64,000 nt of DNA from Minisyncoccota bacterium. Lineage in GTDB: Bacteria > Patescibacteriota > Minisyncoccia > Phycocordibacterales > UBA2100. The position numbers and the translations under genes are program-made. The stretch covers positions 20,635 to 84,634 of the forward strand of contig DATDXU010000002.1 in NCBI GenBank assembly GCA_036517195.1. Direction: 5' to 3'. Position 1 is the first letter of the stretch. Each line of letters starts with the position of its first letter. The notes beneath the pieces were generated by a model that worked only from the letters and a program-made list of their open reading frames with translations, did not search any database and was not told the DNA's origin. Shown in pieces: positions 8,750 to 63,896 of the stretch.

Positions 8750-10462
8750 TTATGTGGCGGGTTTTGAACGAATCATGAAACGTTCTATATCTTCATACGT
8801 TCCCCCGACTTTTTTGCCAGGATTGAAGACTCCGTGCGGGTCGCATATGTTTTTAACCTCGGCGAACAATTCCAACATGCGCGGAGAGAACATGAGTGAC
8901 AGATAAGGGGTGCGGATAATGCCGTCGCTGTGTTCTCCCGTGATAGAACCTTTGAAACGCGCGACGAGTTCATATACTTTCGGAGTAAGTTCACGTATCA
9001 CTGTTCTGTGTTCCGGGTTCGAGAGGTCTACCAGTGGAATGATATGGAAATTTGCGTCCCCGATGTGTCCCGCGATGGTGTAGATAATGTTGTATGTTGA
9101 AAGGAGTTTTGTTAACTCCGGCAAAAAACGCGGATAGTCATCTGGGTGCACGATGATGTCGTCTATAAAGGGGGACGCGCGGAGTCCTTTAAAGTTTTTG
9201 CGCAACAACGAGAAACTTTCCCGACGAATTTTCCAGTATTTTTTCGATTCCGTTTTTCCGAATGCTAGGCGCGCCTTGATATTGATATCGTTGAGCAAGT
9301 TTTTGGCGCTACGGGCAGCTTCCTGTGCATCCTCTAAAGAGTTTTCCGCAAATTCTGCAATGAGGACGAGTTTTGGCACGCCACCGGAGAGTGTCATCCA
9401 CACTTCTGGAAGAAATGCGAGCGCCAGCGCGAGCGCTTCTCGAAGCCTCAGGTGTTGCAAAAATTGCCATCCATAGCGCACCGCGAGTTTGAATGTGTGG
9501 TCGTCGTACGATTCGAATGCTTCAGGGTTGAATTTTAAAACACGATGTACTATGTCGGGCAGGGTAGTGAGGTCTTGTAGAAATATGACGAGCATTGCGC
9601 GCGCAGTTTTTGGTTCGACAAGGGCGAATTTCGCTTTCGTAATGAACGCGAGAGTGCCTTGCGAGCCGCAGATGAGTTTCGTGAGGTCAAATGTTTTTTG
9701 TTTCTTATCTATAACATCCCACAAGGCATAGCCGGCGGAATTTTTTGAAACACGCGGACGCGCGGATTCTATTACTTCTTTGTTCGTTTCCAGAAGGGTG
9801 TGCATTTTTCGGTATACCTCTCCTTCGAATGTGTGCAGGGATTTTTTTTGAGCGAGCTCGTGTTCGGTGAGCGGTTTTAATGTTGCAGATGAGCCATCTC
9901 CAAGAACGACATCAAGCTCTTGCACGTAGCGGTCTGTTTTTCCATAGCGGAGAGAAAGTTCACCTCCCGCGTTGTCTGCAATCATGCCCCCCATGGCGCA
10001 TATTTCACGCGACGCGGGGTACGAGGGAAGGATCATACCTGTTTTTTTGAGCACCTCACGCTCAAAGTCTCGGTAGTACATTCCCGGCTCAACAGTTGCC
10101 CCATTGTGACTGGCGTCGAGTAATGTATTCATGTGTTTTGTACAGACGGCGAGAATTGAACTGGTGAGCGGTCCCCCCGTCATATCCGTTCCTCCCGCGC
10201 GCGCTGTTAAAGAAACGGCATGCCCCCGCTCTTTTTCTTTCAGAATAAAACGTACGAGGGCGGCTACATCGGAAGCGTTTTTTGGGAATACCACAACCTC
10301 TGGGGTTTGTTCAAAAATGCTCGTGTCACGACTGTACTTTTTTCGTGTCTCTGTGTCATCGAGCACCTCACCTTCAATCTGTGAGGCAATGTGGTCGCGG
10401 AGGGAAGATGTCATAGTGATAAGTATATCCCCACACGAACCACATATTCGTTTTCTAAACAT
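8750..10462 (-). CDS. FAD-linked oxidase (FAD_binding_4/PCMH-type; glycolate oxidase GlcD / D-lactate dehydrogenase-like)
   Basis: FAD-binding motif ...SLTARAGGTDMTGGPL... and the full two-domain length. The true start may be the internal ATG at 10414 (MTSSLRDH...). Confidence 0.8.
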   Translation of the reverse strand: MFRKRICGSCGDILITMTSSLRDHIASQIEGEVLDDTETRKKYSRDTSIFEQTPEVVVFPKNASDVAALVRFILKEKERGHAVSLTARAGGTDMTGGPLTSSILAVCTKHMNTLLDASHNGATVEPGMYYRDFEREVLKKTGMILPSYPASREICAMGGMIADNAGGELSLRYGKTDRYVQELDVVLGDGSSATLKPLTEHELAQKKSLHTFEGEVYRKMHTLLETNKEVIESARPRVSKNSAGYALWDVIDKKQKTFDLTKLICGSQGTLAFITKAKFALVEPKTARAMLVIFLQDLTTLPDIVHRVLKFNPEAFESYDDHTFKLAVRYGWQFLQHLRLREALALALAFLPEVWMTLSGGVPKLVLIAEFAENSLEDAQEAARSAKNLLNDINIKARLAFGKTESKKYWKIRRESFSLLRKNFKGLRASPFIDDIIVHPDDYPRFLPELTKLLSTYNIIYTIAGHIGDANFHIIPLVDLSNPEHRTVIRELTPKVYELVARFKGSITGEHSDGIIRTPYLSLMFSPRMLELFAEVKNICDPHGVFNPGKKVGGTYEDIERFMIRSKPAT

Positions 10463-10534: not shown

Positions 10535-10628
10535 GTTGATGGATGGTATCAAGCCGTCGAACCATTACGAATCCTTGACAGATTGTATTATAATTTGCAT
10601 AATGTCTTTGGTGGTTCTAAGTTTTGTC

Positions 10629-10826
10629 ATGGAGGAGATGATGAAAGAGTCAACTCGCGGGAAAATTGTCGCAGTGAACGACAACGTCGTGTCCGTGAAA
10701 TTTGGGCGCGACATGTCGAATGAATCGCAGAGAACCGTATTCTATATTCCGCGAGAAGGGGTGGCAGAAATTCTACTAGATGTGTTTCCGGAAGGAATCA
10801 CACCGTCTCTCGCGAATAACAGGTAG
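10629..10826 (+). CDS. hypothetical small protein (65 aa)
   Basis: ORF starting MEEMMKESTRGKIVAVNDN..., with no recognisable motif. The coding call is weak. Confidence 0.3.
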   Translation: MEEMMKESTRGKIVAVNDNVVSVKFGRDMSNESQRTVFYIPREGVAEILLDVFPEGITPSLANNR

Positions 10827-10905
10827 AACCATATTGGACGCCCCTCTTCGGAGGGGTAATTTTTTTACTCGCGACGTAAGCAAAGCTTTCCGGCAGCGCT
10901 CATTC

Positions 10906-11097
10906 GGAAGCGGAAAAATTCATTTTTCCGCTTCACTCATTCTCTTGCCGGTAGAGTGAGCGATCCCGCAAGCTTGCGGGGATCCGAGCCCTGCCTGCGG
11001 CAGGCAGGCGAGGAGCGAGAAAGGTACAAGCCATGGGGCTTGCCCCCGCGTACCTTTACCAGTCATCAGGATGAGCGACCTCGTAGGTCGCTCATCC
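10906..11097. repeat. REP/BIME-like hairpin cluster (copy 2): five consecutive palindromes at 10906-10934, 10962-10984, 10988-11009, 11020-11057 and 11069-11097
   Basis: Sits between convergent genes. The palindrome gccctgcctgcggcaggcaggc, together with its flank, is a reverse-orientation copy of 61-96. The last hairpin carries the cgacctcgtaggtcg core. Confidence 0.55.
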
Positions 11098-11135
11098 TGC
11101 AAAAATCTTGAATGCTGATGGGGTAGGGCGTTTTT

Positions 11136-24503: not shown

Positions 24504-25799
24504 ATGCGCGACAAAGAAGAATTGCGGCATGCGTGCGGGTCGGTGATTGATGAAGAGAGTTGGAGTGTTATCAGGGCAACGCAAAGACACAGCGCTCTCA
24601 ATTACAATCCATATCCGATTGTTGTGCGCAGACACAGTGGCGCGTATGGGGCGTACCTCTACACCGTTGAAGGACATCGGGTGCTCGATCTTTTGGCAGG
24701 GTACTCTGCGGTGTTCTCGCACCGGTGGGATGTTCCGATTCGGGCACTGACGGCGGAGTTGTCCAGTGGCACTGACTTAACGTCCCGCGGTGTGTACACG
24801 GAACGATTTGCAGAATTCTGTGAAAAGATAACTGCTCTTACGGGGTATGACAGGGTGCTTCCGGCGTCCGACGGGAGGTCAAGCACCGAGCCTGTGATTG
24901 ACGCGTTCTTTATGCATGCCGAAAGGCGCGGTATTAAGAAACCGAACATTATTCTGATGGATAAATATTTCCACGGACGTGCACGGACATTCACCACGAA
25001 CGCTCTCTTTGATTCTTCTCAACACGAAGGCAAGGGGCCGCGGGTTGCCGGCATCGATGTGGTCGCGGATGTTCTCGAGATGGAGAAAAAGATTAACGAG
25101 AATACCGCAGGCATCTTTATGGAAGTGCACAGGGGAGAAGGTGGCCCTCTCTTTGACAACGGCGCATATGTGAGAGCGTGGGAGGCCGCGCGAGAGCACA
25201 ACATACCAATCGCAGTTGACGAAGTGCAAACGGGATTCTATCGATGTGGGCATCTTTGGGCGTGGCAGGAGTCCGGTCTAAAATATCGTCCCGACGCGAT
25301 GGTGCTTGGAAAAGCGCTTGGTGGTGGGATTATGCCGGTCTCGGCTCTTGTCGGCACAGAAGAGTTTATGTCTGTCTTCACGCCCGGAAGCCACGGAAGC
25401 ACATTCGGTGGATTTGCTCCCGCGTGTGCGGTCGCGTGTTCTGTCATTGATTATGTGCGCGAACATCCGGAAATGGGAGCGCGCGCGAATGAAATCGGAG
25501 CGCGTTTTGCAAAAAATCTTGCAGGCATCCCGAATGTGTCCGTTCGCAACCGAGGTGCACTGATTGCACTTCAGATTGAGGGCATTTCGACCACAGAACC
25601 ACTCTGTCTTGAAATGCTTCTCGGTGAACATGATCCGCGCGTCTTTATGAAGCATGGGCATGTGTATGGAAACACCGCGTACGTGCGCATCGCGCCACCC
25701 ATCCTTGCGATTGAAAACTCCATGATTGACGAAGCGTGTCACAATACGATTGCTCCCGTCTTGCGGCGTGCTCGTGAGATTGTTGGAAGCGGTTGTTAA
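24504..25799 (+). CDS. class-III PLP-dependent aminotransferase (ornithine/acetylornithine aminotransferase family)
   Basis: DEVQTGFYRCGHLWAW (DEVQTGFGRTG-like). The PLP-lysine motif is MVLGKALGGG. A perfect SD (gaaggaggtggcgATG) sits at 24491-24503. The ORF also opens at a GTG at 24498. Confidence 0.85.
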   Translation: MRDKEELRHACGSVIDEESWSVIRATQRHSALNYNPYPIVVRRHSGAYGAYLYTVEGHRVLDLLAGYSAVFSHRWDVPIRALTAELSSGTDLTSRGVYTERFAEFCEKITALTGYDRVLPASDGRSSTEPVIDAFFMHAERRGIKKPNIILMDKYFHGRARTFTTNALFDSSQHEGKGPRVAGIDVVADVLEMEKKINENTAGIFMEVHRGEGGPLFDNGAYVRAWEAAREHNIPIAVDEVQTGFYRCGHLWAWQESGLKYRPDAMVLGKALGGGIMPVSALVGTEEFMSVFTPGSHGSTFGGFAPACAVACSVIDYVREHPEMGARANEIGARFAKNLAGIPNVSVRNRGALIALQIEGISTTEPLCLEMLLGEHDPRVFMKHGHVYGNTAYVRIAPPILAIENSMIDEACHNTIAPVLRRAREIVGSGC

Positions 25800-25823
25800 G
25801 TGGTACGTATAGAAAAAATTTGA

Positions 25824-25858
25824 CCCCCATCTCGCAACTACGTGTTGCGGAATGGGGG
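25824..25858. terminator. bidirectional terminator hairpin cccccatctcgcaac-tacg-tgttgcggaatggggg
   Basis: Lies between convergent genes 24504-25799 (+) and 25875-26429 (-). Runs of A/T flank both sides. Confidence 0.6.
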
Positions 25859-25874
25859 TCTTCTTGTCGGGAGC

Positions 25875-26429
25875 TCAGTCGGCCTTCTTGGCCTTGACGA
25901 CCTTGCTCCTGCTGCGACGCGTGGGCGGGCGGTTGTTCCGCATCCGCTTCACCACCTTGCGGTGTTTTGCCTTGAGGTCGGTCACGACCGCCTTCGGCGA
26001 CGGCTTTGCCGGTGGCGCCTCTTCGGGCAGGTCGGTCGGTCCCACGGTGGCGAGATACGCGGCTGTTTGCCGCGCGTCGATCCCGCGGTAGATGTGCGCG
26101 TGGAGCGCCGTTTTGCGCCGAAGCTGGATCTTTTCCCGCATGTGCGGCGGGATGCGTTTTCCTTCCGCTTCCTCCGCCCGTTGCATTTCCTTTTCCGTCG
26201 GCGGCTTTTTCTTGTTTGCCGGCGGAATCGGGCGTGCCGCACCACGCCCATTGTGCGTGATTTCGGCTTGGATGCCGTTGTACATCATGTGCTCGAACTT
26301 GAGCCCGATGTACGGATCGGTCGCATGGCTTCTTCCGCCCCTGTTCTTGTATTTCCGTCGTCCTTCGACTTCGGTGGTGGCTGCCGGCACGTCGGTCTGC
26401 ACGCCTGTGGCGTGCGTCTCGGTGGTCAT
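25875..26429 (-). CDS. hypothetical highly basic, Pro/Lys/Arg-rich protein encoded on a GC-rich island (184 aa)
   Basis: ATG at 26429 with an aaggga SD and a consensus promoter 30-60 nt upstream. The sequence is MTTETHATGVQ...KKKPPTEKEMQRAEE...RRSRSKVVKAKKAD. Local GC is about 62% versus about 50% background, so all three frames are open; the other two were rejected. Confidence 0.5.
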   Translation of the reverse strand: MTTETHATGVQTDVPAATTEVEGRRKYKNRGGRSHATDPYIGLKFEHMMYNGIQAEITHNGRGAARPIPPANKKKPPTEKEMQRAEEAEGKRIPPHMREKIQLRRKTALHAHIYRGIDARQTAAYLATVGPTDLPEEAPPAKPSPKAVVTDLKAKHRKVVKRMRNNRPPTRRSRSKVVKAKKAD

Positions 26430-26485
26430 TGTCTCGTCTCCCTTGTTGGCGCACGTTCGGATGAACGCACGCTTTACCGTTTTGA

Positions 26486-26514
26486 ATGATAGCACAGCCA
26501 AATCAACTTGTCAA
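26486..26514 (-). promoter_or_regulatory. consensus sigma70 promoter TTGACA-17-TATCAT (minus strand)
   Basis: Reading the minus strand: TTGACA (26514-26509), a 17-nt spacer, then TATCAT (26491-26486). It drives the basic-protein gene. Confidence 0.6.
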
Positions 26515-26606
26515 CTTTTTTTGAGAGTCCCAAAAACGGCTTACCGCTTGCGTATATTTGAAGAGTCGTCTACTCTAGTAACGGAATAATAAAGAAGGAA
26601 CATCTA

Positions 26607-27758
26607 ATGGCACTCCTATGGTATTCTCCCTTTGTTGATCTTATAGCTTTGATTGGAGGTCCGTGCGGAGGGAAATCCACGGCTCTTGTGAAAGCGCGCT
26701 CATATCTTGAGAAGTATGGTATTCCAGTCTTTACACTCACAGAAACCCCAACTGAACTTATTGACGCAGGATTTTCTCCGCGAGCGGAAGATTGGTATTA
26801 TCAGACAGATTTTCAAAAGCACGTACTGCGGTACACGCTTGCGCGAGAGAATAGGTACATAGAAATGATTAAGGACCTGCATCTCAACCGTAAGGCAGTG
26901 CTTTTGTGCGATCGGCCTGTGTTTGGCGGAAGAGTTGCCTATATGTCGAAAGAGGAACACGATGCGCTTTTGACACGCGAAGGACTTTCTCTTGATGTAC
27001 TACTACATCGTTATCGTGCCGTTTTGCATCTTGTAACAGCTGCCGAGGGTGCTGAAAAGTATTATACGCTCGCGAACAACATGGCTCGAAAGGAAACAGC
27101 AGAAGAGGCGCGTGCGCTGGACAAGAGAACCATTGAATCGTGGAGTGGGCACCCCCGCGCCCACATCATTGATAACAGTACCGACTTTTCTGGTAAGATG
27201 CGTCGTTTTCAACAACTATTAGCAAGGAGTTTGGACATGCCAGAACCACTTGAGAAAGAGCGTTGGTTCGTCGTGTTGAATTTTCGTCCTGATTTTATTC
27301 CGGCAGGCACACCGCGAATGTACATTGTTCAGGATTACCTTAAGAGCTCCCCTAAGGTTGAGAGGCGAGTGCGCAGTCGTACTCTTTTTGGGGCGACACG
27401 TTTTTTCTACACGGAAAAAAGGCCGACCCTTGCTGTGGGCGAGCGCATCGAGGTGGAGCGGGAGATATCGGAGGCGGAGTATCGTGCACTTCTCACAGAT
27501 ACCACTGCATCCGTGACAAAAACTCGCTGGGGTATTCCATACGAAGGACATCATATGGAATTGGATGAATTTTACCAACCGATTTCAGGTCTTCATAAGC
27601 TCGAGATAGAGGTAGCTGACATGAAAGACCCAGTCACAATTCCTCCAGAGTGGAATGTGGTTGAAGTAACGGGAAATGCTCGTTTTGGTAGTCGCGGTAT
27701 TGCAACGGGTTCGCTTGGGTGCGGATTTTTCGTGCCCAGAAAATACGGACTTCTATAA
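26607..27758 (+). CDS. P-loop NTPase/kinase (AAA_28-like) fused to a C-terminal CYTH (triphosphate tunnel metalloenzyme) domain
   Basis: Walker A LIGGPCGGKST at the N-terminus. The C-terminal half begins EKERWFVVLNF, the CYTH ExExK signature, with conserved acidic/basic tunnel residues downstream. SD is aaagaagg. Confidence 0.65.
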   Translation: MALLWYSPFVDLIALIGGPCGGKSTALVKARSYLEKYGIPVFTLTETPTELIDAGFSPRAEDWYYQTDFQKHVLRYTLARENRYIEMIKDLHLNRKAVLLCDRPVFGGRVAYMSKEEHDALLTREGLSLDVLLHRYRAVLHLVTAAEGAEKYYTLANNMARKETAEEARALDKRTIESWSGHPRAHIIDNSTDFSGKMRRFQQLLARSLDMPEPLEKERWFVVLNFRPDFIPAGTPRMYIVQDYLKSSPKVERRVRSRTLFGATRFFYTEKRPTLAVGERIEVEREISEAEYRALLTDTTASVTKTRWGIPYEGHHMELDEFYQPISGLHKLEIEVADMKDPVTIPPEWNVVEVTGNARFGSRGIATGSLGCGFFVPRKYGLL

Positions 27759-27886: not shown

Positions 27887-30800
27887 ATGATTCGACATCG
27901 AGAAGGGTCTCTCGCTTTTTTTGTTAAGTTCTGTATTTTCAGTATTTGTTTTCTCGCGGTATTTGCATTCTATACAACGTTCGTTCAGGCTGGCGTTTTT
28001 CAATTTGCAGACGGAGACCCGAAGCATCTGCGCGCGCTCTCGCTCGCTGCGGTAGAGGGAGCGGAAGCGGAGATCGATGTTGCGGAGAAAATCAATCTCG
28101 ACGAGAACTACACGCCGGAAGATTTCGGTATCGATAATCTCGGATTTCTTCCGAACAACCCGCTCTATGTGTTCAAAAGTTTGCGTCGTAGTGTAACATC
28201 TGCATTCACGTTTGACCCTGTTTCTCAAGCAGAATTGAAATTACAATTTGCGGCGGAAAAACTTTTGGAAGCGAAAGAATTGGCTGGGAGAGAGGGGGTA
28301 AGTGAAGGAACTATTACGCGTGCGCTCCAAAATTACGAAGACGAACTTGCGGGGATTGATAGGGAGGTGAGAGACGTGGGGAGTGCTGATCCAGAGCAAT
28401 CACTGGAGCTGGCGAGTACCGTCATGGATTCCATGACGAAGTATCAAAAAATGCTCGGCTCTTTTGACAAATCACTTTCTTCGGAATCGTTTGACACAGT
28501 GCAGGACATAAAAGACGCAACCGCGGAAACGTTTGGGGCTGTCTTTACCTTGGGAGAAGCTGGAGCAATTTCGGAAGAACTTGTCTCCGTTCTTGACACG
28601 CAATCAGGTTCCGAATTCAAGCATTTCAAAAACGCGGAAATATTGAAAGAACTAAGCGATAAAGCGCCTGTTGACGCTCACGAAGCACTGCAAGACGTAG
28701 AAGATAATGTGCTCAATAAACTGCAGGTGCAACTGGAGCAGTCTGACGCCGCGCAAAAAGCTATATTCAGCGATTTCGTGCAGGAAATAGGTGGCAGTGA
28801 AGTTCGTCACATTGAGGTCATTAATGAGCTTGAGGTACGACCTATTTCTGATGATGTTCGAGACGCTATTTCGGGTGTGAAAGAGGGGGTGTTGGCAAAA
28901 ACAGAAGATCGTCTTGAGGCATTTACGCCCGAGCAAAAAGAAAAATTTCTCGGGCACCTCGTCGGAGGCACTCTTGAGAACATCCGCGTCATTAAAGAGA
29001 TTGAAAACAGTGTTGCCGCGGGTGTGTTTGCTGGAATTGAAAAAGTAAAAACTCAAGCAACGGAGCAGTTCAAACAAAATATTGAGGAAGCGGGCACGAA
29101 CGATGAGCGCAAACAGGAGTTTACCAACTCAATCGAACGTTTTCACGATGCGAAGTCCATCTCGGTTCTTGAAGAAATAGGCGCGCTGATTCCGGACGAT
29201 AAGAAAGAGTTTTTTAACACACTCAAGCAGAAGGCTGCGCAAGAAATCAGGCGGGATATTGATGGCGCACGAAATGCCACGCAACGACAAGTTATTTACA
29301 AATCGCTTTCTGGAGACCACCCGGAAGATGTTGCCGCGCTAGAAAGCTTTGAAGGAGATATCGGGATATCAAGCTCTATGCGGGGAGTTTTGGACGCGCT
29401 TCGCGCTACGCAATATGGCCGCGTACAGAATCGTGCCGCGAATATTACGGACGCGAGCCGTTTGGAGAAATTTGAACAAGAATATCAAAAATACGAAACA
29501 TCGTTTGACGAGGCGCCGACTGGAACACGTCTCGAATCAACATTCAGAGACAGGAAAAATGTTTTCGATTCTCCGGATCGCGCGTACGACAAAATCGCGG
29601 AAGCGCGCGCCGCGCTCACAAAGCTTGAAAGTGTTGTAGATACCCTTCCGTTTGACGTCGGGTTTGAAGACGGACATTTTGACCCCGCGATTCAAGAAAT
29701 TGAGCGTATGCGCGCGGCGGCAGAAAAGAAACTGGGAGTTGCCGAAACATCGCTTGAATACAACGACGTGGGGCGGGCATTCGGAGAAGCGCAAGCCGCT
29801 CTTCAAATGGCGAAAAACGGCCTCTCCATGGCAACAGGATACAAGCAGGGAAGAAAGCAAGAAAAACAAGTGCTCGATTTCCTTCCAAAAGATTTCTATC
29901 AAAACGATACGGCTGTTCGTCCGAGTGTTACGGAAGGATTCAATTTGTACAATGCGTATGAGTTCAGTCAGTTCTGCGCGTTCACGGGCGGTTTCTTGAA
30001 AGGAAAGACACGCTGTGATTTTGCTGACGGACGATCTCTCGAAGTTCCGGGTGGCGCGTTTCCGTTCAGAATTCCACCCGAATTTGTTCCACAAAATGTA
30101 GTTCAAAAAGAAACAGATGGAAAACCGATTCCAGTCGGATGTCCTTCTGTGCCACCAACGTTTGGGAATTTCTGCGCGGGTGGAAAAATTGTGGATCAGT
30201 TTGACAGGAGGGGGTGTCAAATCGCGCCTCGTTGTGAATACAAAAATGTTGAAGATATGCCAATTCGTCCTGGGCTCGATCCAATCGATATGGAACGCAA
30301 ACTGCACCCAACTGATCCGACGCTCTGTGGTAGCTTCCAGGGGTATCAATGTCGCGAGGGGTACTACTGTGAGTATCCGAAAGACACCCGCTCTACCGAT
30401 GCGTTTGGAAAATGTGTAAAAGGAAACGAACAGGTAACCTGTCAGGCGTACTTCACCGGTTGGGTTTACGAAGCGAGCGCGAAAGGAGGAAGCCAGTGCG
30501 TGCAAAAGAGTGTTACCGGATGTACCAACCCATTCGTTTATATTTCGAAAGAGCAATGTGAACGCGGGCAAAACACAGACCCAAATACATATGAGGGAGA
30601 CGCGAATTCGTGCCCTGGATTTGCCTATAGTGCGTGGGATAAGAAGGGGGTACGTTATTGTCAACTCAATACGGAATACAGGTGTGATTACAATTATCCA
30701 AGTTACTTAACGAATGGAGCAAACTACAAGGCGGAAAATTGTCCGGCAGATTTGGTGACGGTGTATTGCGATTCCTACACCACAGAAAGTTCCTGCAAGA

Positions 30801-33043
30801 CGATAGCAACCTGTCAGTGGGGGATTCCATCGGGCGAAAGTGCAAAAAGATGTTATGTGTCTGGCAAGACGGGGATGTGTCCTTCAATGCCGACGGTGTC
30901 CAGTTGTCCGGCAGGGCAGAAAAGGGTAGTTTCATGGAGCTCACCTGAATGCGGTGAATACCATACGTGTATGAACGATACGCCGACCACGGACCAAACG
31001 TGGACACAAACCACATGGAAGTTCACTGACGGCGAACAAACGTCTATGATTCTCGACCGCTTAGACGCCGAGTATCAAAATTACTTGGCGCCTATTCGCG
31101 CGCAGTGTCTCACGATTTCCAAAGCGAAGTTTACATGGAGACAGGGCGCGGGAGATGATAGCGCAACAAACTGGAGAAACTTTGGTATTCCAGATTGTTC
31201 CGGTACGGCGACCACTAATTACCAATGTGGCAACAACATGTGTGAGATGAATGAAACGGCCCAATCGTGCCCGACTGATTGTGGTAGCACGGGAGGCGGA
31301 TGTGGCTGGTACATGAACGAAACGGCGTGTAAAACGGTGAACGGTTGTTCGTGGACCGCGATGTCCAGCAATTCGAATGGCGGATACTGCGCGCCGACAA
31401 GTACCAACTGGACACCACAGTGTTCCGACGGTAAAGACAATGACAGCGATGGAAAAATTGATTATCCAAACGATGCTGGTTGCTACGGCAAGACGGACGA
31501 CATGGAATCGGACAGCTTTGGGGGCGAGAGCGGTATGCGTCGCTGTTTTTACCCAAACACAACGAAAGGCGGCACGCACGTCGGGTGGACTATTTGGTGC
31601 GAGTCAGATTATGTGAATTGTCACTATGGAGACCCAGCTGGGAAAGTGTTTGATACTGCCGGTGCCTCTCTTGGTGCTCCATCAAGTTGCGAAAGCGGTC
31701 TTGGTGGAGGGTCAGGTGGCGGATGCGGCATATATATGACAGACGCAACATGTAAGGCCATGTCTGCATGCCGCTGGGCGACGGGTACTTCCGGTGGAGG
31801 ATACTGTGAACCGATACCCACGACATCAGGCGCGATGCAGTGTTCCGACGGCAAAGACAACGACAGTGATGGGCAAATTGATTATCCGGCTGACACCGGC
31901 TGTTACAGCAAAGAAGACCCAGACGAAGCGTATGCGGGGACTGGGACGACCTATGTGGGAGACGCAAATTCTTGCCCGAGCTTTGCCTACAGCAGATGGG
32001 ATACAAAAGGTGTCAGGTACTGTCAGCTTAATGCAGAGCGAAAGTGTGATTATAACTATCCAAGCTACATAACGAATGGCGCGAATTATAAAGCGGAAAG
32101 CTGTCCGGTAACTGATTCCACGATCACCACTACTGCTACGATGAGTTGCATGGGTACCTATACAACACAGACATCGTGTCAGAGCGCGGGATGCACGTGG
32201 TTTGCCAGTCACTATGACGGTACGCACTGTGATAACGCGGCGCATGGAAGTTCAGGCACTGGCACCAACTCTTCACAGTATGGCTCGTGCGCGAATTACA
32301 CCTCGCAATCATCATGCACAAGTGTCACAAACTGCAAGTGGTTTACCGGTTCAGGGTCTGGGAATACGTCGTACTGCTATTACGAGAGCGGAACATCAGG
32401 TTCCTCGTGTTCTTCTGGACAGTATTGGAACGGTAGCGCATGCGTTACCTCTACAACAACCGGAACTACATGCCAAACGGGTCAATACTGGAACGGGAGT
32501 AGTTGTGTCACGTCTTCAACGACGCAGTATTCTTCGGATCCAGCGACCGCGTGCGCGCAGGGGGGCGGCTCATGGAACAGTTCGACAAGTTATTGCACAA
32601 TGTCGAATTCATCCGCATGTACATCAGGTCAATATTGGAACGGTAGCGCGTGTGTTACTTCTTCAACAACGGGGTCTTCATGCCCATCGGGCCAGTGGTG
32701 GAATGGTTCAAGTTGTGTGAATACATCCACGACAGATTGTCCGTCGGGGCAATACTGGAGTGGCTCAAGCTGTGTCACCAGCTCTTCCTCAACCACAGAT
32801 TATTCCAGCATGCAGTCGTCGTGCGCGTCTGCCGGTGGCACGTGGGATTCTACAAGCAACTATTGCCAGATGCCATCAACCTCAAGTTCGTCTTCTTCAA
32901 CATCGTGTCCGTCTGACCAATATTGGAACGGTAGCTCGTGCGTAACAACATCTTCGTCTGATACCACCTCTTCGTACACTCCACCCCCTTCAACAGACAC
33001 AACAACTACGTACACACCACCCCCTACAACAACGACCCCCTAA
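27887..33043 (+). CDS. giant (1718 aa) secreted/cell-surface cysteine-rich modular protein
   Basis: Single 5.1-kb ORF.
- N-terminal signal-anchor (FFVKFCIFSICFLAVFAFY).
- About 700 aa of acidic helical region.
- A duplicated Cys-rich module (GGGCGxYM..T.CK....C.W......GGYC.P......QCSDGKDNDSDGxIDYPxDxGCY...D.DE, then Y[EV]GDANSCP[GS]FAYS.WD.KGVRYCQLN.E.KCDYNYPSY[LI]TNGANYKAE[NS]CP).
- Six tandem copies of C-x-SGQYWNGS-x-CV-(S/T)n.
- An S/T/P-rich tail. Confidence 0.85.
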   Translation: MIRHREGSLAFFVKFCIFSICFLAVFAFYTTFVQAGVFQFADGDPKHLRALSLAAVEGAEAEIDVAEKINLDENYTPEDFGIDNLGFLPNNPLYVFKSLRRSVTSAFTFDPVSQAELKLQFAAEKLLEAKELAGREGVSEGTITRALQNYEDELAGIDREVRDVGSADPEQSLELASTVMDSMTKYQKMLGSFDKSLSSESFDTVQDIKDATAETFGAVFTLGEAGAISEELVSVLDTQSGSEFKHFKNAEILKELSDKAPVDAHEALQDVEDNVLNKLQVQLEQSDAAQKAIFSDFVQEIGGSEVRHIEVINELEVRPISDDVRDAISGVKEGVLAKTEDRLEAFTPEQKEKFLGHLVGGTLENIRVIKEIENSVAAGVFAGIEKVKTQATEQFKQNIEEAGTNDERKQEFTNSIERFHDAKSISVLEEIGALIPDDKKEFFNTLKQKAAQEIRRDIDGARNATQRQVIYKSLSGDHPEDVAALESFEGDIGISSSMRGVLDALRATQYGRVQNRAANITDASRLEKFEQEYQKYETSFDEAPTGTRLESTFRDRKNVFDSPDRAYDKIAEARAALTKLESVVDTLPFDVGFEDGHFDPAIQEIERMRAAAEKKLGVAETSLEYNDVGRAFGEAQAALQMAKNGLSMATGYKQGRKQEKQVLDFLPKDFYQNDTAVRPSVTEGFNLYNAYEFSQFCAFTGGFLKGKTRCDFADGRSLEVPGGAFPFRIPPEFVPQNVVQKETDGKPIPVGCPSVPPTFGNFCAGGKIVDQFDRRGCQIAPRCEYKNVEDMPIRPGLDPIDMERKLHPTDPTLCGSFQGYQCREGYYCEYPKDTRSTDAFGKCVKGNEQVTCQAYFTGWVYEASAKGGSQCVQKSVTGCTNPFVYISKEQCERGQNTDPNTYEGDANSCPGFAYSAWDKKGVRYCQLNTEYRCDYNYPSYLTNGANYKAENCPADLVTVYCDSYTTESSCKTIATCQWGIPSGESAKRCYVSGKTGMCPSMPTVSSCPAGQKRVVSWSSPECGEYHTCMNDTPTTDQTWTQTTWKFTDGEQTSMILDRLDAEYQNYLAPIRAQCLTISKAKFTWRQGAGDDSATNWRNFGIPDCSGTATTNYQCGNNMCEMNETAQSCPTDCGSTGGGCGWYMNETACKTVNGCSWTAMSSNSNGGYCAPTSTNWTPQCSDGKDNDSDGKIDYPNDAGCYGKTDDMESDSFGGESGMRRCFYPNTTKGGTHVGWTIWCESDYVNCHYGDPAGKVFDTAGASLGAPSSCESGLGGGSGGGCGIYMTDATCKAMSACRWATGTSGGGYCEPIPTTSGAMQCSDGKDNDSDGQIDYPADTGCYSKEDPDEAYAGTGTTYVGDANSCPSFAYSRWDTKGVRYCQLNAERKCDYNYPSYITNGANYKAESCPVTDSTITTTATMSCMGTYTTQTSCQSAGCTWFASHYDGTHCDNAAHGSSGTGTNSSQYGSCANYTSQSSCTSVTNCKWFTGSGSGNTSYCYYESGTSGSSCSSGQYWNGSACVTSTTTGTTCQTGQYWNGSSCVTSSTTQYSSDPATACAQGGGSWNSSTSYCTMSNSSACTSGQYWNGSACVTSSTTGSSCPSGQWWNGSSCVNTSTTDCPSGQYWSGSSCVTSSSSTTDYSSMQSSCASAGGTWDSTSNYCQMPSTSSSSSSTSCPSDQYWNGSSCVTTSSSDTTSSYTPPPSTDTTTTYTPPPTTTTP

Positions 33044-33821: not shown

Positions 33822-35960
33822 ATGTCCGAAGGCGCACGCACATCAAAAATACTTACTTTAGAGGAACTCAAAAGCGACATATACAAAAGTGAGTTTTGGA
33901 AAGAAATGCCCTTTGGGGAATACTTGAATCTTGCACATACGTTTCCATCGGTTTCAAATTCCGCGTATCAGCGAATGTACAAAACGATTGTAGGTCAGGG
34001 CATGCATCCTTACAAATTTGCGGGCCGTGACTACATTCATTACACTGCTTTCGATGATCCGTGGGAAGATGGAAAAGACGCAGTGTTTGGTCTTGATCGG
34101 ACACTCATGCGTCTCGTTGATGTGCTTCGTGCGGGAGCCGCTCGTCTCGGACAAGAACGTCGCATTATCCTGATGCATGGTCCGGTTGGTTCTTGTAAGA
34201 CCACAATCGCGCGCCTTCTTCGGAAAGGGATTCAGGCAAACACCAAGACAGACGCCGGTCAGTTATATACATATTCGTGGCTTGCGAAAACTGACGAAGA
34301 TCGCCTCATTCTCGGACTTTCGTCGTCAAGCGATGCTCAACGAATACATAACAAGGTTTCCTGTCCTGTTCACGAAGATCCGCTGATGTTGCTACCTCCA
34401 GATGCGCGCGGACAAGTGGTTGCAAAAATGAATTGCGTTTCCACTAAGGGGACTGAGCGCGGTCGCGAAGAACTCATTGAGTTCGAGGGCGAACTATGTC
34501 CTGTGTGTCGTCTGATGTATCAAGGATTTCTGCGTAAGTATAAGGGAGACTGGAAGAAAGTAATTTCGGAACACATAGAAGTGCGTCGGCTCATCTTCTC
34601 CGAAGTTGACCGTATCGGCATTGGTTCGTTTCGTCCGAAGGACGAGAAGAATCAGGACTCCACTGAATTAACCGGTGACATGAACTATCGCAAGATTGCG
34701 GAGTATGGTTCGGAGTCTGATCCTCGCGCGTTTAATTTTGACGGTGAGTTTCAGGTTTCCCATCGTGGCTTCTTCTATGTAGAAGAGGCGCTCAAACTTG
34801 ACAAAGCGTTTTTGTACGACTTTCTCGGCGCAAGCCAAGAGCATGTCGTAAAACCGAAGCGTTTCGCGGAGATGTTTATCGACGAGGTTCTTATGGCTGG
34901 TACGAATAATCCAGAATATGAGAAGCTTCGAGAAGACGATAGCATGGAAGCGTTTCGCGATCGAACGACGCGTGTTGATGTCCCGTATGTCCTTCGTCTT
35001 GACGATGAGAAACGCATCTATAACAAGGTGTATGCTACTATCTCTGGAGGAAAACACATCGCTCCACACACACGAGAAATGGCATCACTGTGGGCGATTT
35101 TCACGCGCCTCAAAAATTCTGAAAGAGAAGTGACGCGTGGGCTCAAACTTAGAGACAAGGCGCGCCTGTATAACGGGAAGGTTGTACATGGATATACTGA
35201 CGAACATGTGCAGGACCTTCTGGGTGAGCATCCCGAGGAAGGAATGAGTGGTATTTCTCCTCGATATGTGAACGACATGATAGGTGCTGCTATTGTGAAG
35301 GATCTTCAGGCGCCGTGCACATCGTGGTTCGCCGTTAAGCGTGAACTCGAAGACGGTCTCAAAACCCACTCTCTCATCAAGGGAAGTAAGGGTTCTGGTA
35401 AACGCGAGGACTATCTAAAATATCTTTCCTATGTTATGGAAGAGTTCGATAATATAGTCAAAGAAGAAGTGCAAGAGGCGGTTGCTGGAGATGAAAATGA
35501 TCTCAAGCAGTTGTTTGAGAAATATGTTAATCATCTGGTCGCATATATCAACGGCGAAAAAGTTCTCGATCATCGAGGAGAGCGCGTTGTTCCAGACGAA
35601 CGCCTCATGCGTGAAGTCGAAGAAAAGATTGAAGTTAGTCCGCAACACAAAGATGAATTTCGTCGTCGAGTCGTGCAAACTATGGGTACACGGGCAAGAC
35701 GCAAGGAAGAGTTTAATTACAAAACGGATGAACGTTTGTATCGCGCCTTGCGTTTAAAGTTGTTTGAAGACCGCAAGGACACCATTAACCTCTCAACTCT
35801 GCATACAGGGGTTATTGATCCTGGAGAGCAGGAGAAGATTGAGGTGGTGAAGAAGCGTCTCAAGCAAAACGCGGGGTACTGTGATCATTGTGCAACGCTG
35901 GTTTTGAACCACGTCGCGTCCATTTTTGCACGCGGAACAAGCACGAAAAACAAGGCCTAA
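33822..35960 (+). CDS. prkA: PrkA-family AAA+ protein (putative serine protein kinase PrkA/YeaG)
   Basis: N-terminus resembles YeaG/PrkA (SAYQRMYKTIVGQG vs SAYANAAERLLMAI). Walker A ILMHGPVGSCKTTIARLL. Length is 712 aa. SD is aggaaagagagg. Confidence 0.8.
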   Translation: MSEGARTSKILTLEELKSDIYKSEFWKEMPFGEYLNLAHTFPSVSNSAYQRMYKTIVGQGMHPYKFAGRDYIHYTAFDDPWEDGKDAVFGLDRTLMRLVDVLRAGAARLGQERRIILMHGPVGSCKTTIARLLRKGIQANTKTDAGQLYTYSWLAKTDEDRLILGLSSSSDAQRIHNKVSCPVHEDPLMLLPPDARGQVVAKMNCVSTKGTERGREELIEFEGELCPVCRLMYQGFLRKYKGDWKKVISEHIEVRRLIFSEVDRIGIGSFRPKDEKNQDSTELTGDMNYRKIAEYGSESDPRAFNFDGEFQVSHRGFFYVEEALKLDKAFLYDFLGASQEHVVKPKRFAEMFIDEVLMAGTNNPEYEKLREDDSMEAFRDRTTRVDVPYVLRLDDEKRIYNKVYATISGGKHIAPHTREMASLWAIFTRLKNSEREVTRGLKLRDKARLYNGKVVHGYTDEHVQDLLGEHPEEGMSGISPRYVNDMIGAAIVKDLQAPCTSWFAVKRELEDGLKTHSLIKGSKGSGKREDYLKYLSYVMEEFDNIVKEEVQEAVAGDENDLKQLFEKYVNHLVAYINGEKVLDHRGERVVPDERLMREVEEKIEVSPQHKDEFRRRVVQTMGTRARRKEEFNYKTDERLYRALRLKLFEDRKDTINLSTLHTGVIDPGEQEKIEVVKKRLKQNAGYCDHCATLVLNHVASIFARGTSTKNKA

Positions 35961-35975
35961 CTATGGGCATGTGGG

Positions 35976-36012
35976 GGGACGGAAGGTGTAACCTTCCGTC
36001 CCTTTCTTTTTT
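35976..36012 (+). terminator. rho-independent terminator ggacggaagg-tgtaa-ccttccgtcc + ctttctttttt
   Basis: 10-bp perfect stem plus a T-run, directly after prkA. Confidence 0.7.
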
Positions 36013-36069
36013 AAATACCCATGAGAGTATGTACATAGAATAGATAGGTACAAAGAAAGGTAGGGTGCG

Positions 36070-37308
36070 ATGACAAGACGTATTACGCAAGATGAACAAG
36101 AATTTCTCGACATCCTTCGTGGAAAGTGGCGTACGGGTGAGCTATTGAAATATTTGCAACGTGGCCAGATAACCATTCTTGGTCCCGGCAAAGGTTTCAG
36201 CATCCCCATGGAAGAAATCATTATTCCTCGGGCACACCTTGCCCCCATACCACCTGACGCAGAGTTGCAAGAAACGGGTGATGGGAAAGAGGGTGACGCA
36301 AATGTTGGTCCGGATATTGGCATAGGGCAAGGTCCAGGAAAACCCGGAACTGACCTCGGTCCAGTTGAGGGTGATGACGGAGAGGGAAGTGAGGGAGGAG
36401 AACGCTCGGCCGGAAGTGGTCGCGGGGGCGACGTCGAGCGTGTTGAGGTTCCTGCTGATGAGGCGTATGAGCTTTTTGCAGAAATGCTCGAACTTCCCCG
36501 TATTCAACCGAAGGGTGACAAGTCGATTACAAAAGAAGAGTGGAAATATACAGATATTCGGAAAACTGGACCCGATTCACTTGTACACAGACGCCGTACG
36601 CTCAAAGAAGCCTTGAAACGCAATATCGCAGAGGGAACGTATGTGCCGGAGCGTCCACGAATTATTGTTGAACGTCCCGACAAACGGTACCGTATTCCGG
36701 AAGTTATCAAAAAGCCAAAAAACAACGCAGTCATCTTCTTCATGATGGATGTGTCTGGTTCCATGACCTCCGAGGATAGAAAAATGGTGCGTTATTTTTG
36801 CGCACTGTTTGAATTTTGGCTCGTTGGAAATTTTGATGGTATAGAGATTGTGTGGATTATTCACGACGGAGAGGCCGATCGTGTTGATCGCGATACATTC
36901 TTCAATACCTTTCGCGCAGGAGGAACGGTGGTTTCAACGGCGCATGCGCTTATGCTCAAGATTATTGACGAAGAGTTCCCGCCAGCGAATTGGAATATTT
37001 ATCCAGTGTATCTTTCAGACGGGTTCAATTTCGGTGATGACGATGACCTGTGTCTGGAACTTATACGAGAAAATACTCTTCCAGTTGTAAATCAATATAC
37101 GTACTGTGAAGTTTCTGCTGAACGCGAGTGGTGGGGAGCCACACTTGCAGAGGGCGGAGATCCGAATAGTCGCTTCTCTCCCTCGGGAAGTTTTGGAAAA
37201 ATGCTCCAAGACAATTTTTCCAATGACACTCGGGTTGCATGTACGAACCTGAAGAAGATACAAGACATTCCTGGGGCACTGAAAGCAGTATTCGGAAAAG
37301 GAAACTAA
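36070..37308 (+). CDS. YeaH/YhbH-like protein (DUF444, vWA-like)
   Basis: MIDAS-like MMDVSGSMTSEDRKM. Gly/Asp/Glu-rich low-complexity N-region as in YeaH. Positioned between prkA and spoVR. Confidence 0.75.
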   Translation: MTRRITQDEQEFLDILRGKWRTGELLKYLQRGQITILGPGKGFSIPMEEIIIPRAHLAPIPPDAELQETGDGKEGDANVGPDIGIGQGPGKPGTDLGPVEGDDGEGSEGGERSAGSGRGGDVERVEVPADEAYELFAEMLELPRIQPKGDKSITKEEWKYTDIRKTGPDSLVHRRRTLKEALKRNIAEGTYVPERPRIIVERPDKRYRIPEVIKKPKNNAVIFFMMDVSGSMTSEDRKMVRYFCALFEFWLVGNFDGIEIVWIIHDGEADRVDRDTFFNTFRAGGTVVSTAHALMLKIIDEEFPPANWNIYPVYLSDGFNFGDDDDLCLELIRENTLPVVNQYTYCEVSAEREWWGATLAEGGDPNSRFSPSGSFGKMLQDNFSNDTRVACTNLKKIQDIPGALKAVFGKGN

Positions 37309-49119: not shown

Positions 49120-49140
49120 TCTCTTTTGTAATAACTCCTT

Positions 49141-49851
49141 CTACCAAGGTCTTACCTTGGTAGAAACCTTGTCGTCTTCCGAATGTGCGTATATTTTTGC
49201 CTCTTCAATTAATTGTGACACAGATTGAGGTGTCTCCAAGATCTCAAGGACGGCGTCTTTGTTGATGAGGGAACTTTCTGGGCGGATTTCATCTGAACAG
49301 TAATCAGGGAAACTCGAATAACGATATTTTGATAAAAAAGATCTCAATCTCCTTTCATTTCTGACTACGCCTTTTTTCCAAGCAGACTCGATCAATTCGG
49401 CTGGGTTTGCGTGGATATAGCTTACGACTCTGTTGAAATTTTGGTCGGACACGATTCGTTTTGATTTAAAAGCACCCTGAAACAAAGACCCACTACGTTC
49501 GTACTTAATATTGAAGTACATTGCATACCCCGTTCCCACTCGACGCATAAAAGATGTTATGCCTCCAGGGTCGTGTTCACGTAGAAGTAAGTGATAATGA
49601 TTTGACATGAGACAGTATGCGCCAATGTCTACTAGTGTTTCTTTTCTCTCAACTGTCGCCATAACATCTACTAAGGTCTTACCTTGGTAGATGTTGCTGA
49701 CATGAATTGAATCGTGACTGTTGCACGCATAGAGGAGCATCAAGAAGCGCTCATGGTCTTTTGGATTCTCAAAGATGGTGCGCTTTTCAACGCCACGGTT
49801 GAAGCAGTGATACCACTCATTTGGTGCGAAGGGTGATGCGCGTTCGGCCAT
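49141..49851 (-). CDS. IS200-like / REP-associated tyrosine (Y1, HUH) transposase
   Basis: HUH motif CLMSNHYHLLL and catalytic-Tyr motif VVSYIHANP. Length 236 aa. The stop codon lies inside the left palindrome. Confidence 0.75.
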   Translation of the reverse strand: MAERASPFAPNEWYHCFNRGVEKRTIFENPKDHERFLMLLYACNSHDSIHVSNIYQGKTLVDVMATVERKETLVDIGAYCLMSNHYHLLLREHDPGGITSFMRRVGTGYAMYFNIKYERSGSLFQGAFKSKRIVSDQNFNRVVSYIHANPAELIESAWKKGVVRNERRLRSFLSKYRYSSFPDYCSDEIRPESSLINKDAVLEILETPQSVSQLIEEAKIYAHSEDDKVSTKVRPW

Positions 49852-49901
49852 ATGCTTATGATTATCATAGCATATTTTCTACCAAGGTGACACCTTGGTA
49901 G
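49141..49901. mobile_element. IS200/IS605-like RAYT element: HUH Y1 transposase gene flanked by GTAG-terminated palindromes ctaccaagg-N6-ccttggtag (49141-49163 and 49879-49901)
   Basis: Identical 9-bp stems on both flanks. A third, near-identical copy (ctactaaggtcttaccttggtag) lies inside the CDS at 49668-49690. Confidence 0.65.
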
Positions 49902-49981
49902 AAGGGGATTGTTGACTTATAAATCCAATCGTGGTACATAGATTCTAGTCATCAATCTTACAAAAGAAGGAACACGCGGCA

Positions 49982-50680
49982 ATGTGGAAACGTTTCGCAC
50001 TGTTTGCAATGCTGGTTTTTTCTCTTATGTCTGTGTCGCTGACGTTTGCTTTTGCAGACACGAATAAGGCGCCGAGCTACGAGCTTGCCAGGAGCATCCT
50101 CGGCAAGGACTTCATTTCCCCAGAGGAAGTCACCACCGCACGCGGCGTCACCTATACCGACGAGCAGCTCGCCACGTTCCGCGATACGCTCCCGGCGCAG
50201 GAGGTGCTCGAGTGGTGCCGCAACAATGGCATGATGCTTATCGCTGGTCCGCCGAAAAACATGTCGCTTCTCGACGTTCGCGCGCTCAAGACCGACTACT
50301 TCTACACGAAGAAAAACAACTGGTACTCGAGCAAGAGCGAGAGGTTCGCCAAAAACGACAAGGCCGAGCCGGTCTGGATCGCGCTTCGCAAGAAGCCGGT
50401 TGAGCGTTCGTTCAACAAGGATTGGAACGAGCAGAAGGAGCTCGTCGCCCCGCCGAATGTGGTCCCCAATGTCGCTGAGTTAGTGTGGGCGCTGACAACC
50501 TACAAGGCGGTGCGGGGTGTCTACCTGCTCCCGAACGTCTACGTGAGGACTTCCAGCGTCGACTCGGACGGCGACCGCGTGGACGTCGGCCCTTTCGCTG
50601 CCGGTGGCCTCCTCGTCGGCCACTCTTGGGACGACGACCGGCTCTCCCGCTTGGGCGTTTCGGCGTCTCGGAAGTTCTGA
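49982..50680 (+). CDS. hypothetical secreted protein on a GC-rich (~60%) segment
   Basis: Signal peptide MWKRFALFAMLVFSLMSVSLTFAFA. GC rises sharply after about 50040. Alternative-frame ORFs in this region are composition artefacts. Confidence 0.55.
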   Translation: MWKRFALFAMLVFSLMSVSLTFAFADTNKAPSYELARSILGKDFISPEEVTTARGVTYTDEQLATFRDTLPAQEVLEWCRNNGMMLIAGPPKNMSLLDVRALKTDYFYTKKNNWYSSKSERFAKNDKAEPVWIALRKKPVERSFNKDWNEQKELVAPPNVVPNVAELVWALTTYKAVRGVYLLPNVYVRTSSVDSDGDRVDVGPFAAGGLLVGHSWDDDRLSRLGVSASRKF

Positions 50681-50725
50681 CCCTCGAATTCTTGAGGACC
50701 TTGATCCTCTTGAAACCCTTGAGAG

Positions 50726-50759
50726 CCCTTGCGCGCCAGCGCGGGGGTTTTTTCTTTTT
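50726..50759 (+). terminator. terminator cccttgcgcg-cca-gcgcggggg + T-run
   Basis: GC stem followed by ttttttcttttt. Confidence 0.55.
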
Positions 50760-63867: not shown

Positions 63868-63896
63868 TTGACACCGCGCAAACTTTGTAGTATAAG
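63868..63896 (+). promoter_or_regulatory. consensus sigma70 promoter TTGACA-17-TATAAG
   Basis: Read directly from the sequence. Precedes an ORF that runs off the window end. Confidence 0.55.

Follow-up and report, generated by a model that had tools for sequence, protein, structure and literature searches.

In the 64-kb stretch of Minisyncoccota DNA that we have analyzed (the window; contig DATDXU010000002.1, positions 20,635 to 84,634), a small minus-strand gene at 25875-26429 forms an island of high GC content and encodes a very basic protein of 184 amino acids (aa), here called P0001. The best overall explanation, which we consider moderately likely, is that this is a native gene restricted to one clade, that its product is an abundant basic nucleic-acid binder and that its composition has been maintained. 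According to this, the gene would be vertically inherited and limited to a narrow Kaiserbacteria-like (Paceibacterota) clade, and its GC excess would be a property of the gene and not of a donor, upheld in three lineages. The more restricted statement that we are dealing with a native, conserved and fast-evolving coding gene with a maintained composition is, in our opinion, quite likely. The original prediction, made from the letters of the window before any database search, had seen in it a horizontally acquired gene, for example derived from a phage or a plasmid.

A GC-rich gene at the same site in related genomes

The island had been recognized as a GC jump over about 600 bp, and this was confirmed when sliding-window GC was computed. 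The window has 49.0% GC (mean.490 and standard deviation (sd).030 in 555-bp windows) and the open reading frame (ORF) 63.1%, and the richest 555-bp window of the whole stretch is precisely 25871-26425, with.634 GC or ~4.8 sd over the mean. In a 200-bp profile, GC goes from.51 to.60-.68 across 25800-26500 and is.47 at 26400-26600, with the rise at ~25800 and the fall at ~26450. The GC contents of the three codon positions (GC1/2/3) are.62/.49/.78, and this GC3 compares with a genome mean of.50 (sd.07). When the protein was recoded with the window-average codon usage, 53.1% GC and a GC3 of.49 resulted; of the 14 surplus GC points, the amino-acid composition (Ala, Arg, Pro and Gly) accounts for about 4 and a synonymous choice of G/C-ending, T-avoiding codons for about 10. 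In fact, the T-ending codons GCT, CCT, ACT, GTT and TCT are not used even once, AAG encodes 15 of the 20 lysines (31% genome-wide), and T represents only 4.9% of the third positions and 8.6% of the mRNA-sense strand.

P0001 is identical to the NCBI hypothetical protein VJH33_00335 of a Candidatus Paceibacterota metagenome-assembled genome (MAG), encoded on a 273-kb scaffold of the Rifle aquifer series. An exhaustive phmmer search of 1.84 billion cluster representatives returned a sole relative, P0002 (203 aa, 41% identity, E 4.5e-9), whose gene lies on a 3.5-kb contig (L005) and is divergent from a DUF5667 homolog. The product of the latter is 84% identical over 802 aa to the 1718-aa DUF5667 protein of the window, and the DNA alignment between both loci extends through the terminator and the last codons of the small gene. 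A search anchored on DUF5667 led to a third locus (L006) in Candidatus Kaiserbacteria RIFCSPLOWO2_01_FULL_50_24 (DUF5667 67% identity), where the order is aminotransferase, a minus-strand ORF of 330 nt within a patch of up to 74% GC, and DUF5667. This ORF has its own signals (TTGACA-17-TAAGAT, GAGGAG-ATG and a strong terminator) and encodes a 108-aa product of pI 11.2 whose likeness to P0001 is at motif level only (GAAR, LRRR and H..AAxLAT); by position and motifs it is the probable positional ortholog of our gene. Among the further DUF5667 anchors, L007 was the same organism as L006, L009 was too short, and in the more distant L008 (DUF5667 41% identity) a tRNA lies upstream and the small gene is missing. 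From the 90% clusters of the neighboring genes, only the same strain was reached (L010 and L011, with an identical small gene and differing from the window only at the contig ends). No further members were found in word-seeded searches of 5.8 billion clusters with P0001, P0002 and their profile, no relative appeared in degenerate-pattern scans of JGI metagenome contigs and IMG/VR or in tblastn against phages and plasmids, and the window contains no paralog of the gene. Judging by these searches, the gene belongs to a new, tiny protein family in Kaiserbacteria-like Patescibacteria.

The bias is present at all three loci, with GC3 values for the small gene of.78 (window),.75 (L005) and.79 (L006) against.42-.60 in the flanking genes. 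Between the window and L005, the small gene has a synonymous divergence (dS) of 1.64 and DUF5667 one of 1.38, and because of this we consider the small gene to be as old as its flanking gene. The nonsynonymous divergence (dN) is, however, ~seven times higher (.605 vs.089; 41% vs 84% aa identity). The promoter, the 5' hairpin and the terminator are collinear between the two loci and more conserved than the coding body. The GC-rich codon choice has therefore persisted in three lineages despite large-scale replacement of synonymous sites. A two-state decay model with the observed dS, approximate as dS is near saturation, gives a present GC3 of at most.67 even if it had been 1.0 at the lineage split; as the observed values are higher, the composition would be actively kept, by selection or by a biased process, and would not be the fading trace of a donor. 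Furthermore, given the older split of L006, a passive surplus should have vanished altogether. An ORF conserved in syntenic position and with normal composition had been named in the original prediction as evidence against it, and this is half the case: the ORF is found at the syntenic site in L005 (in L006 positionally), but its composition there is not normal either (GC3.75-.79).

The strongest alternative is that of a foreign gene from a GC-rich mobile pool, placed in an aminotransferase-DUF5667 hot spot by a single ancestral entry or by repeated entry of different alleles, and we regard it as improbable. The deviant composition and codon usage at all three loci would fit with it, as would the variable content of the site, where an AAA_28 gene is found in the window only, and the fact that the L006 product is barely like the other two. 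However, the dS of the small gene equals that of its neighbor, the expression signals are collinear and conserved between the window and L005, and one ancient transfer should have shed most of the GC3 surplus by now. Moreover, no tRNA is present in the window, the neighbors of the small gene are an aminotransferase and an AAA_28 ATPase and not an integrase, no direct repeats flanking the small gene were found, and there are no relatives in phage genomes, plasmids, IMG/VR or the 1.84 billion protein representatives. Horizontal acquisition was thus not borne out, given a gene at the same site in L005 (in L006 positionally), with a neighbor-like dS and without mobility signatures, and neither was a phage or plasmid derivation, for which no relative exists in the phage genomes, plasmids and IMG/VR contigs searched. 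We also considered that the gene could be the target of a diversity-generating retroelement, and rejected it because the template-repeat search in the window and in L001 turned up no stretch of the gene a second time.

Coding frame and messenger

On sequence grounds, the annotated ORF is the gene and is protein-coding, because of its period-3 GC, its sense-frame alignment, its dN/dS and the lack of an Rfam match even at E <= 1. In the annotated frame GC3 exceeds GC1 and GC1 exceeds GC2, the order typical of GC-rich genes, and the periodicity is found in the frame of the Shine-Dalgarno and ATG at all three loci (chi2 p = 8e-8, 8e-10 and 1e-3 for the window, L005 and L006); in the direct antisense frame the order is mirrored (GC1.78, GC3.62). 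A six-frame Smith-Waterman comparison with P0002/L005 gave the sense frame a score of 173, and none of the other frames exceeded 133. When the conserved core was aligned with L005 from nucleotides only, mismatches at codon positions 1, 2 and 3 were 5, 11 and 16, and the Nei-Gojobori dN/dS between both loci was 0.37 overall and 0.22 in the core (aa 60-112).

A GC-rich unit bounded by a promoter and a terminator in a 49% GC genome has the usual look of an RNA gene, and the functional product could then be a structured RNA, non-coding or dual-function, with an incidental or secondary ORF. Whole transcripts of the window, L005 and L006 fold with z of -8.5, -5.8 and -5.9 against dinucleotide shuffles and their coding sequences (CDS) alone with z of -3.5, -4.7 and -2.5 against synonymous-codon permutations; in addition, the non-coding ends are more conserved than the ORF body, and the L006 ORF contains several perfect hairpins, one with 16-nt arms. 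However, much of the whole-transcript z stems from the terminator and the 5' hairpin, and 24 ordinary genes of the window, used as a control, gave a mean z of -1.14 (sd 1.35) with a minimum of -4.45, so that a lead that seemed strong at first sight was weakened. The internal hairpins are not positionally conserved, as the partners of the conserved ATCCCGCCGC segment differ, lying upstream of it in L005 and downstream of it in the window. Conservation at the mRNA level is limited to the hairpin caps at both ends and a U-poor body, and in the two alignable sequences the 5' hairpin and the terminator have one compensatory pair each. With Rfam 15, nothing in the window reached the gathering threshold, the locus had no match at E <= 1, and L006 gave chance-level matches only. 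Together with the period-3 GC in the frame of the Shine-Dalgarno and ATG at all three loci, a sense frame that aligns best and third positions that are the most variable, these results make an RNA gene very unlikely.

For a protein-coding gene, the GC-rich, U-poor and hairpin-capped mRNA may have been selected for stability or high output. Stability of the mRNA as the reason for the composition appears to us somewhat unlikely, although hairpin caps and a U-poor body do fit a long-lived messenger. We give a smaller probability still to selection on the messenger as a dual-function RNA, or as a long-lived mRNA for an undescribed, abundant nucleoid- or ribosome-associated protein specific to the candidate phyla radiation (CPR).

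The small gene of L006 has peculiarities of its own. At 9327-9360 of this locus, inside the small ORF, there is a perfect inverted repeat with 16-nt arms that encodes AEAKRVDALRLRR and in which the arms use complementary codons (GAG/CTC, GCG/CGC and AAG/CTT), and several further hairpins of 8-14 nt are found along the 330 nt of the gene. The gene may be shaped by mutations of the quasi-palindrome or template-switch type.

That the true gene is another frame or antisense, such as the 215-aa plus-strand ORF at 25842-26489 or the 269-aa minus-strand ORF at 25645-26454, both open owing to the high GC of the DNA, is hardly credible: three frames have no internal stop and the antisense core translations of the window and L005 are also alike (Smith-Waterman 133), but the GC3 > GC1 > GC2 order is found in the annotated frame only, it is this frame alone that has a Shine-Dalgarno and ATG after the promoter at all three loci, the direct antisense frame of L005 is open for just ~340 nt of the gene, the 269-aa ORF extends across the terminator into the aminotransferase gene, and the avoidance of A-ending codons such as TTA, CTA and TCA predicts open antisense frames. 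As for the earlier statement that all frames are open, it holds for three of the six, which are stop-free over the 555 nt; one other frame has 1 stop and the remaining two have 4 stops each.

The basic protein product

P0001 is, as had been anticipated from its sequence, a very basic Lys/Arg/Pro-rich protein of 184 aa without a recognizable motif. The searches gave no family, fold or PDB match for it. It contains 20 K, 20 R, 17 P and 22 A residues (K, R, A, P and T are the dominant ones) and has a pI of 10.5, a net charge of +21 and a grand average of hydropathy (GRAVY) of -1.07. Alignments define a conserved core at aa 60-130 (26040..26252, minus strand) with the motifs GAAR, KKKPPT, GK-IPPHM-KI-LRR-AL-H and TA-LAT. 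The elements conserved between P0001 and P0002 are GRxKYxN, GAAR, KKKPPT, GKxIPPHMxxKIxLRRxxAL, TAxxLAT and a Lys/Arg tail ending in KAKKA. In P0001 this C-terminal Lys/Arg-rich tail covers aa 146-184 (25878..25994, minus strand), ends in KAKKAD and is predicted to be helical, and the last two full 20-residue windows of the protein (aa 141-180) carry a net charge of +14. The P0002 tail is similar and also ends in KAKKA, whereas the 108-aa ORF of L006 has no such tail.

AlphaFold2 models from the two-sequence alignment are of low confidence (full length: predicted local distance difference test (pLDDT) 58, predicted TM-score (pTM).20; core alone: pLDDT 61; pTM of the models.20-.31). They place helices at 39-50, 79-89, 95-115, 119-128, 148-166 and 171-183 with low-confidence linkers between them, and the core helices (79-89, 95-115 and 119-128) have pLDDT values of 60-79. 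The top Foldseek matches, chance matches without significance, were extended eukaryotic ribosomal proteins, and a sequence-profile search of the PDB gave one chance match only (E.38). The literature search returned no description of the protein or of a basic nucleoid protein specific to Patescibacteria.

The product is thus small and very basic and is for the most part predicted to form helices or to be disordered; it has a short conserved core and ends in a Lys/Arg-rich tail. An abundant protein of this kind could bind DNA or RNA mainly via its charge, like a nucleoid- or ribosome-associated protein. We favor nucleic-acid binding because the predicted product is strongly basic and combines helices with disorder and its promoter is near consensus, and we tentatively suggest that P0001 may bind nucleic acid (in the nucleoid, RNA or the ribosome), mainly by charge. 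The original prediction had proposed a strongly expressed gene for a nucleic-acid-binding protein; its first half agrees with the near-consensus expression signals, and binding is for the moment the most reasonable guess from charge.

A stand-alone transcription unit

Judging by the signals that surround it, the locus forms a transcription unit of its own and its expression signals are strong, and the description of a single-gene island with its own promoter and terminator proved correct. The sigma-70-type promoter (26486..26514, minus strand) consists of a -35 TTGACA at 26514-26509, a 17-nt spacer and a TG-extended -10 TATCAT at 26491-26486; this is the TTGACA-17-TATCAT promoter reported originally, with 11/12 consensus matches plus the upstream TG. 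Counterparts lie ~50 nt upstream of the start in the relatives (TTGACA-17-TATAAT in L005 and TTGACA-17-TAAGAT in L006). The 5' untranslated region (26430..26485, minus strand; ~56 nt) contains a 10-bp stem-loop at 26449-26472, with a folding energy of -15.3 kcal/mol and a z of only -1.5, whose core GUGCGUUC/GAACGU recurs in L005, where one pair has changed in a compensatory way (C-G to U-A) and another from U.G to U-A. The Shine-Dalgarno sequence AAGGGAGA at 26437-26444 precedes by 7 nt the ATG at 26429, so that the start and the 184-aa product foreseen in the original prediction stand. There is an in-frame upstream TTG at 26501, but it falls within the promoter, and therefore ATG 26429 is taken as the start. 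The CDS (25875..26429, minus strand) has 184 codons and ends with the stop TGA at 25875-25877.

Downstream, the intrinsic terminator (25812..25860, minus strand) consists of a two-tier hairpin (25822-25860) and, on the minus strand, a T-run after it. It is 73% identical to that of L005, with 18 nt identical in the inner hairpin and one compensatory pair (U-A to C-G). The hairpin faces a convergent plus-strand aminotransferase gene that ends at 25799. A shared bidirectional terminator had been proposed, and the hairpin is indeed real and two-tiered and a bidirectional function is plausible, but it is asymmetric: AAATTTTTTC follows on the minus strand and only a weak CTTCTTGT on the plus strand.

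Sites with at most one mismatch to TTGACA-N17-TATAAT number 3 in the 64 kb, against 0.24 expected by chance, and the promoter of the small gene is one of them. Another, TTGACA-17-CATAAT at 10575-10603 (+), lies ahead of a stand-alone ORF of ~60 aa (MKESTRGKIVAVNDN...; feature span 10575-10870) with a terminator near 10840-10866. Next to it, at 10900-11110, a non-coding stretch of ~200 nt is dense in GC-rich palindromes and has no Rfam match. The third promoter, TTGACA-17-TATAAG at 63868-63896 (+), is near the end of the window and its downstream target lies outside.

Neighboring genes and a second GC-rich island

Between the small gene and DUF5667, the window carries at 26607-27758 (+) a gene for a 383-aa AAA_28 ATPase with a weakly Tubby_C-like C-terminal half. 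L005 and L006 have no such gene at this site, which corresponds to a one-gene insertion or deletion at normal GC. The DUF5667 gene (27887-33043, +) encodes a protein of 1718 aa with an N-terminal signal or transmembrane segment, a conserved helical N-terminal part of 800 aa, and repeats rich in Cys and in Ser/Thr (CPSGQYWNGSSCV). This is probably a giant surface protein, and the identity over its N-terminal half is 84% with L005 and 67% with L006. Downstream of it, at 33822-37200, precomputed Pfam labels indicate a PrkA-type AAA kinase and DUF444, the yeaG-yeaH pair.

The island of the small gene is not unique in the window, since a second one reaches.618 at 50131-50685 (555-bp windows). It belongs to a single gene at 49982-50680 (+), with 59% GC, a GC3 of.79 and T-avoiding codons like those of our gene, that encodes a 232-aa product with an N-terminal signal or transmembrane segment and no Pfam match. 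This gene has its own terminator (50721-50752) and no surplus of mRNA structure (z +0.6 and +0.8). Close to it, at 49141-49851 (-), lies a 236-aa IS200/Y1-transposase-like gene (PF01797, E 7e-7) accompanied by three copies (0 expected) of a 25-nt palindrome, TCTACCAAGGT-NNN-ACCTTGGTAGA, at 49140-49164, 49667-49691 and 49878-49902. By its sequence, this ensemble looks like a REP-associated tyrosine transposase (RAYT) with its repetitive extragenic palindromic (REP) elements. The same palindrome is also present in L005 (2599-2632), between the small gene and DUF5667, and REP-like palindromes (AATCCAAGAGGCGTCGCCTCTTGGATT and a variant) are found in L006 at 9040-9070 and 9660-9690, on either side of the small gene.

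Discussion

Several observations weigh against a native gene with maintained composition and a nucleic-acid-binding product, besides the approximate character of the decay argument. The family consists of two clearly homologous sequences only, P0001 and P0002, as the similarity of the L006 ORF is marginal (blastp E.005, hhalign E.0023) and does not stand out among the six frames. Pfam, NCBIfam, PHROGs and PADLOC gave no match for P0001, P0002 or the L006 ORF, and Foldseek searches of the P0001 models against the PDB returned nothing below E = 1, with TM-scores of at most.33. In folding, the CDSs of the three small genes sit in the lower tail and within the range of ordinary genes, which is no more than suggestive of a selected RNA structure inside the CDS. 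The ribosomal-protein genes of the window do not show the bias (GC3.37-.46), and because of this ordinary translational codon selection for high expression is not the explanation for it. Finally, the second GC3-rich gene of the window, with the same codon signature, adjoins the IS200/RAYT-like gene and its REP-like palindromes, a fact that also counts in favor of a foreign gene: with such a twin beside a transposase-like gene, an origin in a foreign pool is conceivable.

In the comparison with known systems, the gene behaves as a taxonomically restricted orphan, although its composition and the strength of its signals are atypical. Like such orphans (PMC11293555), it is short, limited to a narrow clade and fast evolving yet under purifying selection, with a product predicted to be disordered and basic. 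However, orphan genes normally match or undershoot the GC and GC3 of their genomes (PMC11293555), the ORFans of E. coli are AT-richer (PMC3514957) and genes that diverge fast are expected to gain A and T (PMC11293555, PMC3514957), whereas the gene described here has 14 GC points more than its surroundings, a GC3 of.78 kept in three lineages, and near-consensus expression signals. With horizontally acquired islets it shares a sharp one-gene discontinuity in GC and codon usage and a promoter and terminator of its own; of the criteria examined for such islets, composition agrees and the other four do not, and the gene differs from them in its orthologous site in relatives, its neighbor-like dS, the absence of mobility signatures and the lack of a detectable donor.

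As for the protein, we have compared it with Lys/Ala/Pro-rich basic nucleoid proteins, namely chlamydial Hc1, AlgP and the H1-like tails of mycobacterial HupB/MDP1. P0001 resembles them in its very high charge, its low-complexity basic segments and its KAKKA end, and its gene is presumably highly expressed as theirs are. Unlike them, it has no profile match (no Pfam or NCBIfam at E <= 1) and shows a single terminal KAKKA with scattered K/R instead of a tandem AKKA/PAKK array, and its core (GAAR, KKKPPT, IPPHM..LRR) has no counterpart in these proteins. Its predicted long basic helices and disordered linkers are also reminiscent of extended basic ribosomal proteins, with which the only Foldseek matches are non-significant (E above 1, TM-scores at most.33). 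In addition, ribosomal proteins are slow-evolving and widespread, while P0001 is fast-evolving and clade-restricted.

Should P0001 be an abundant nucleic-acid binder, it would represent a lineage-specific component of the chromatin or the ribosome in the much-reduced Patescibacteria; otherwise, it would be one more hypothetical protein in a MAG. As a rule, a GC island that has a promoter of its own is read as horizontal transfer; the gene may serve as a worked counter-example, as its anomaly would be inherited and maintained. Moreover, with a protein that evolves fast while GC3 stays high, it could be a small test case for selection on mRNA composition, for selection on mRNA stability and for GC-biased gene conversion.

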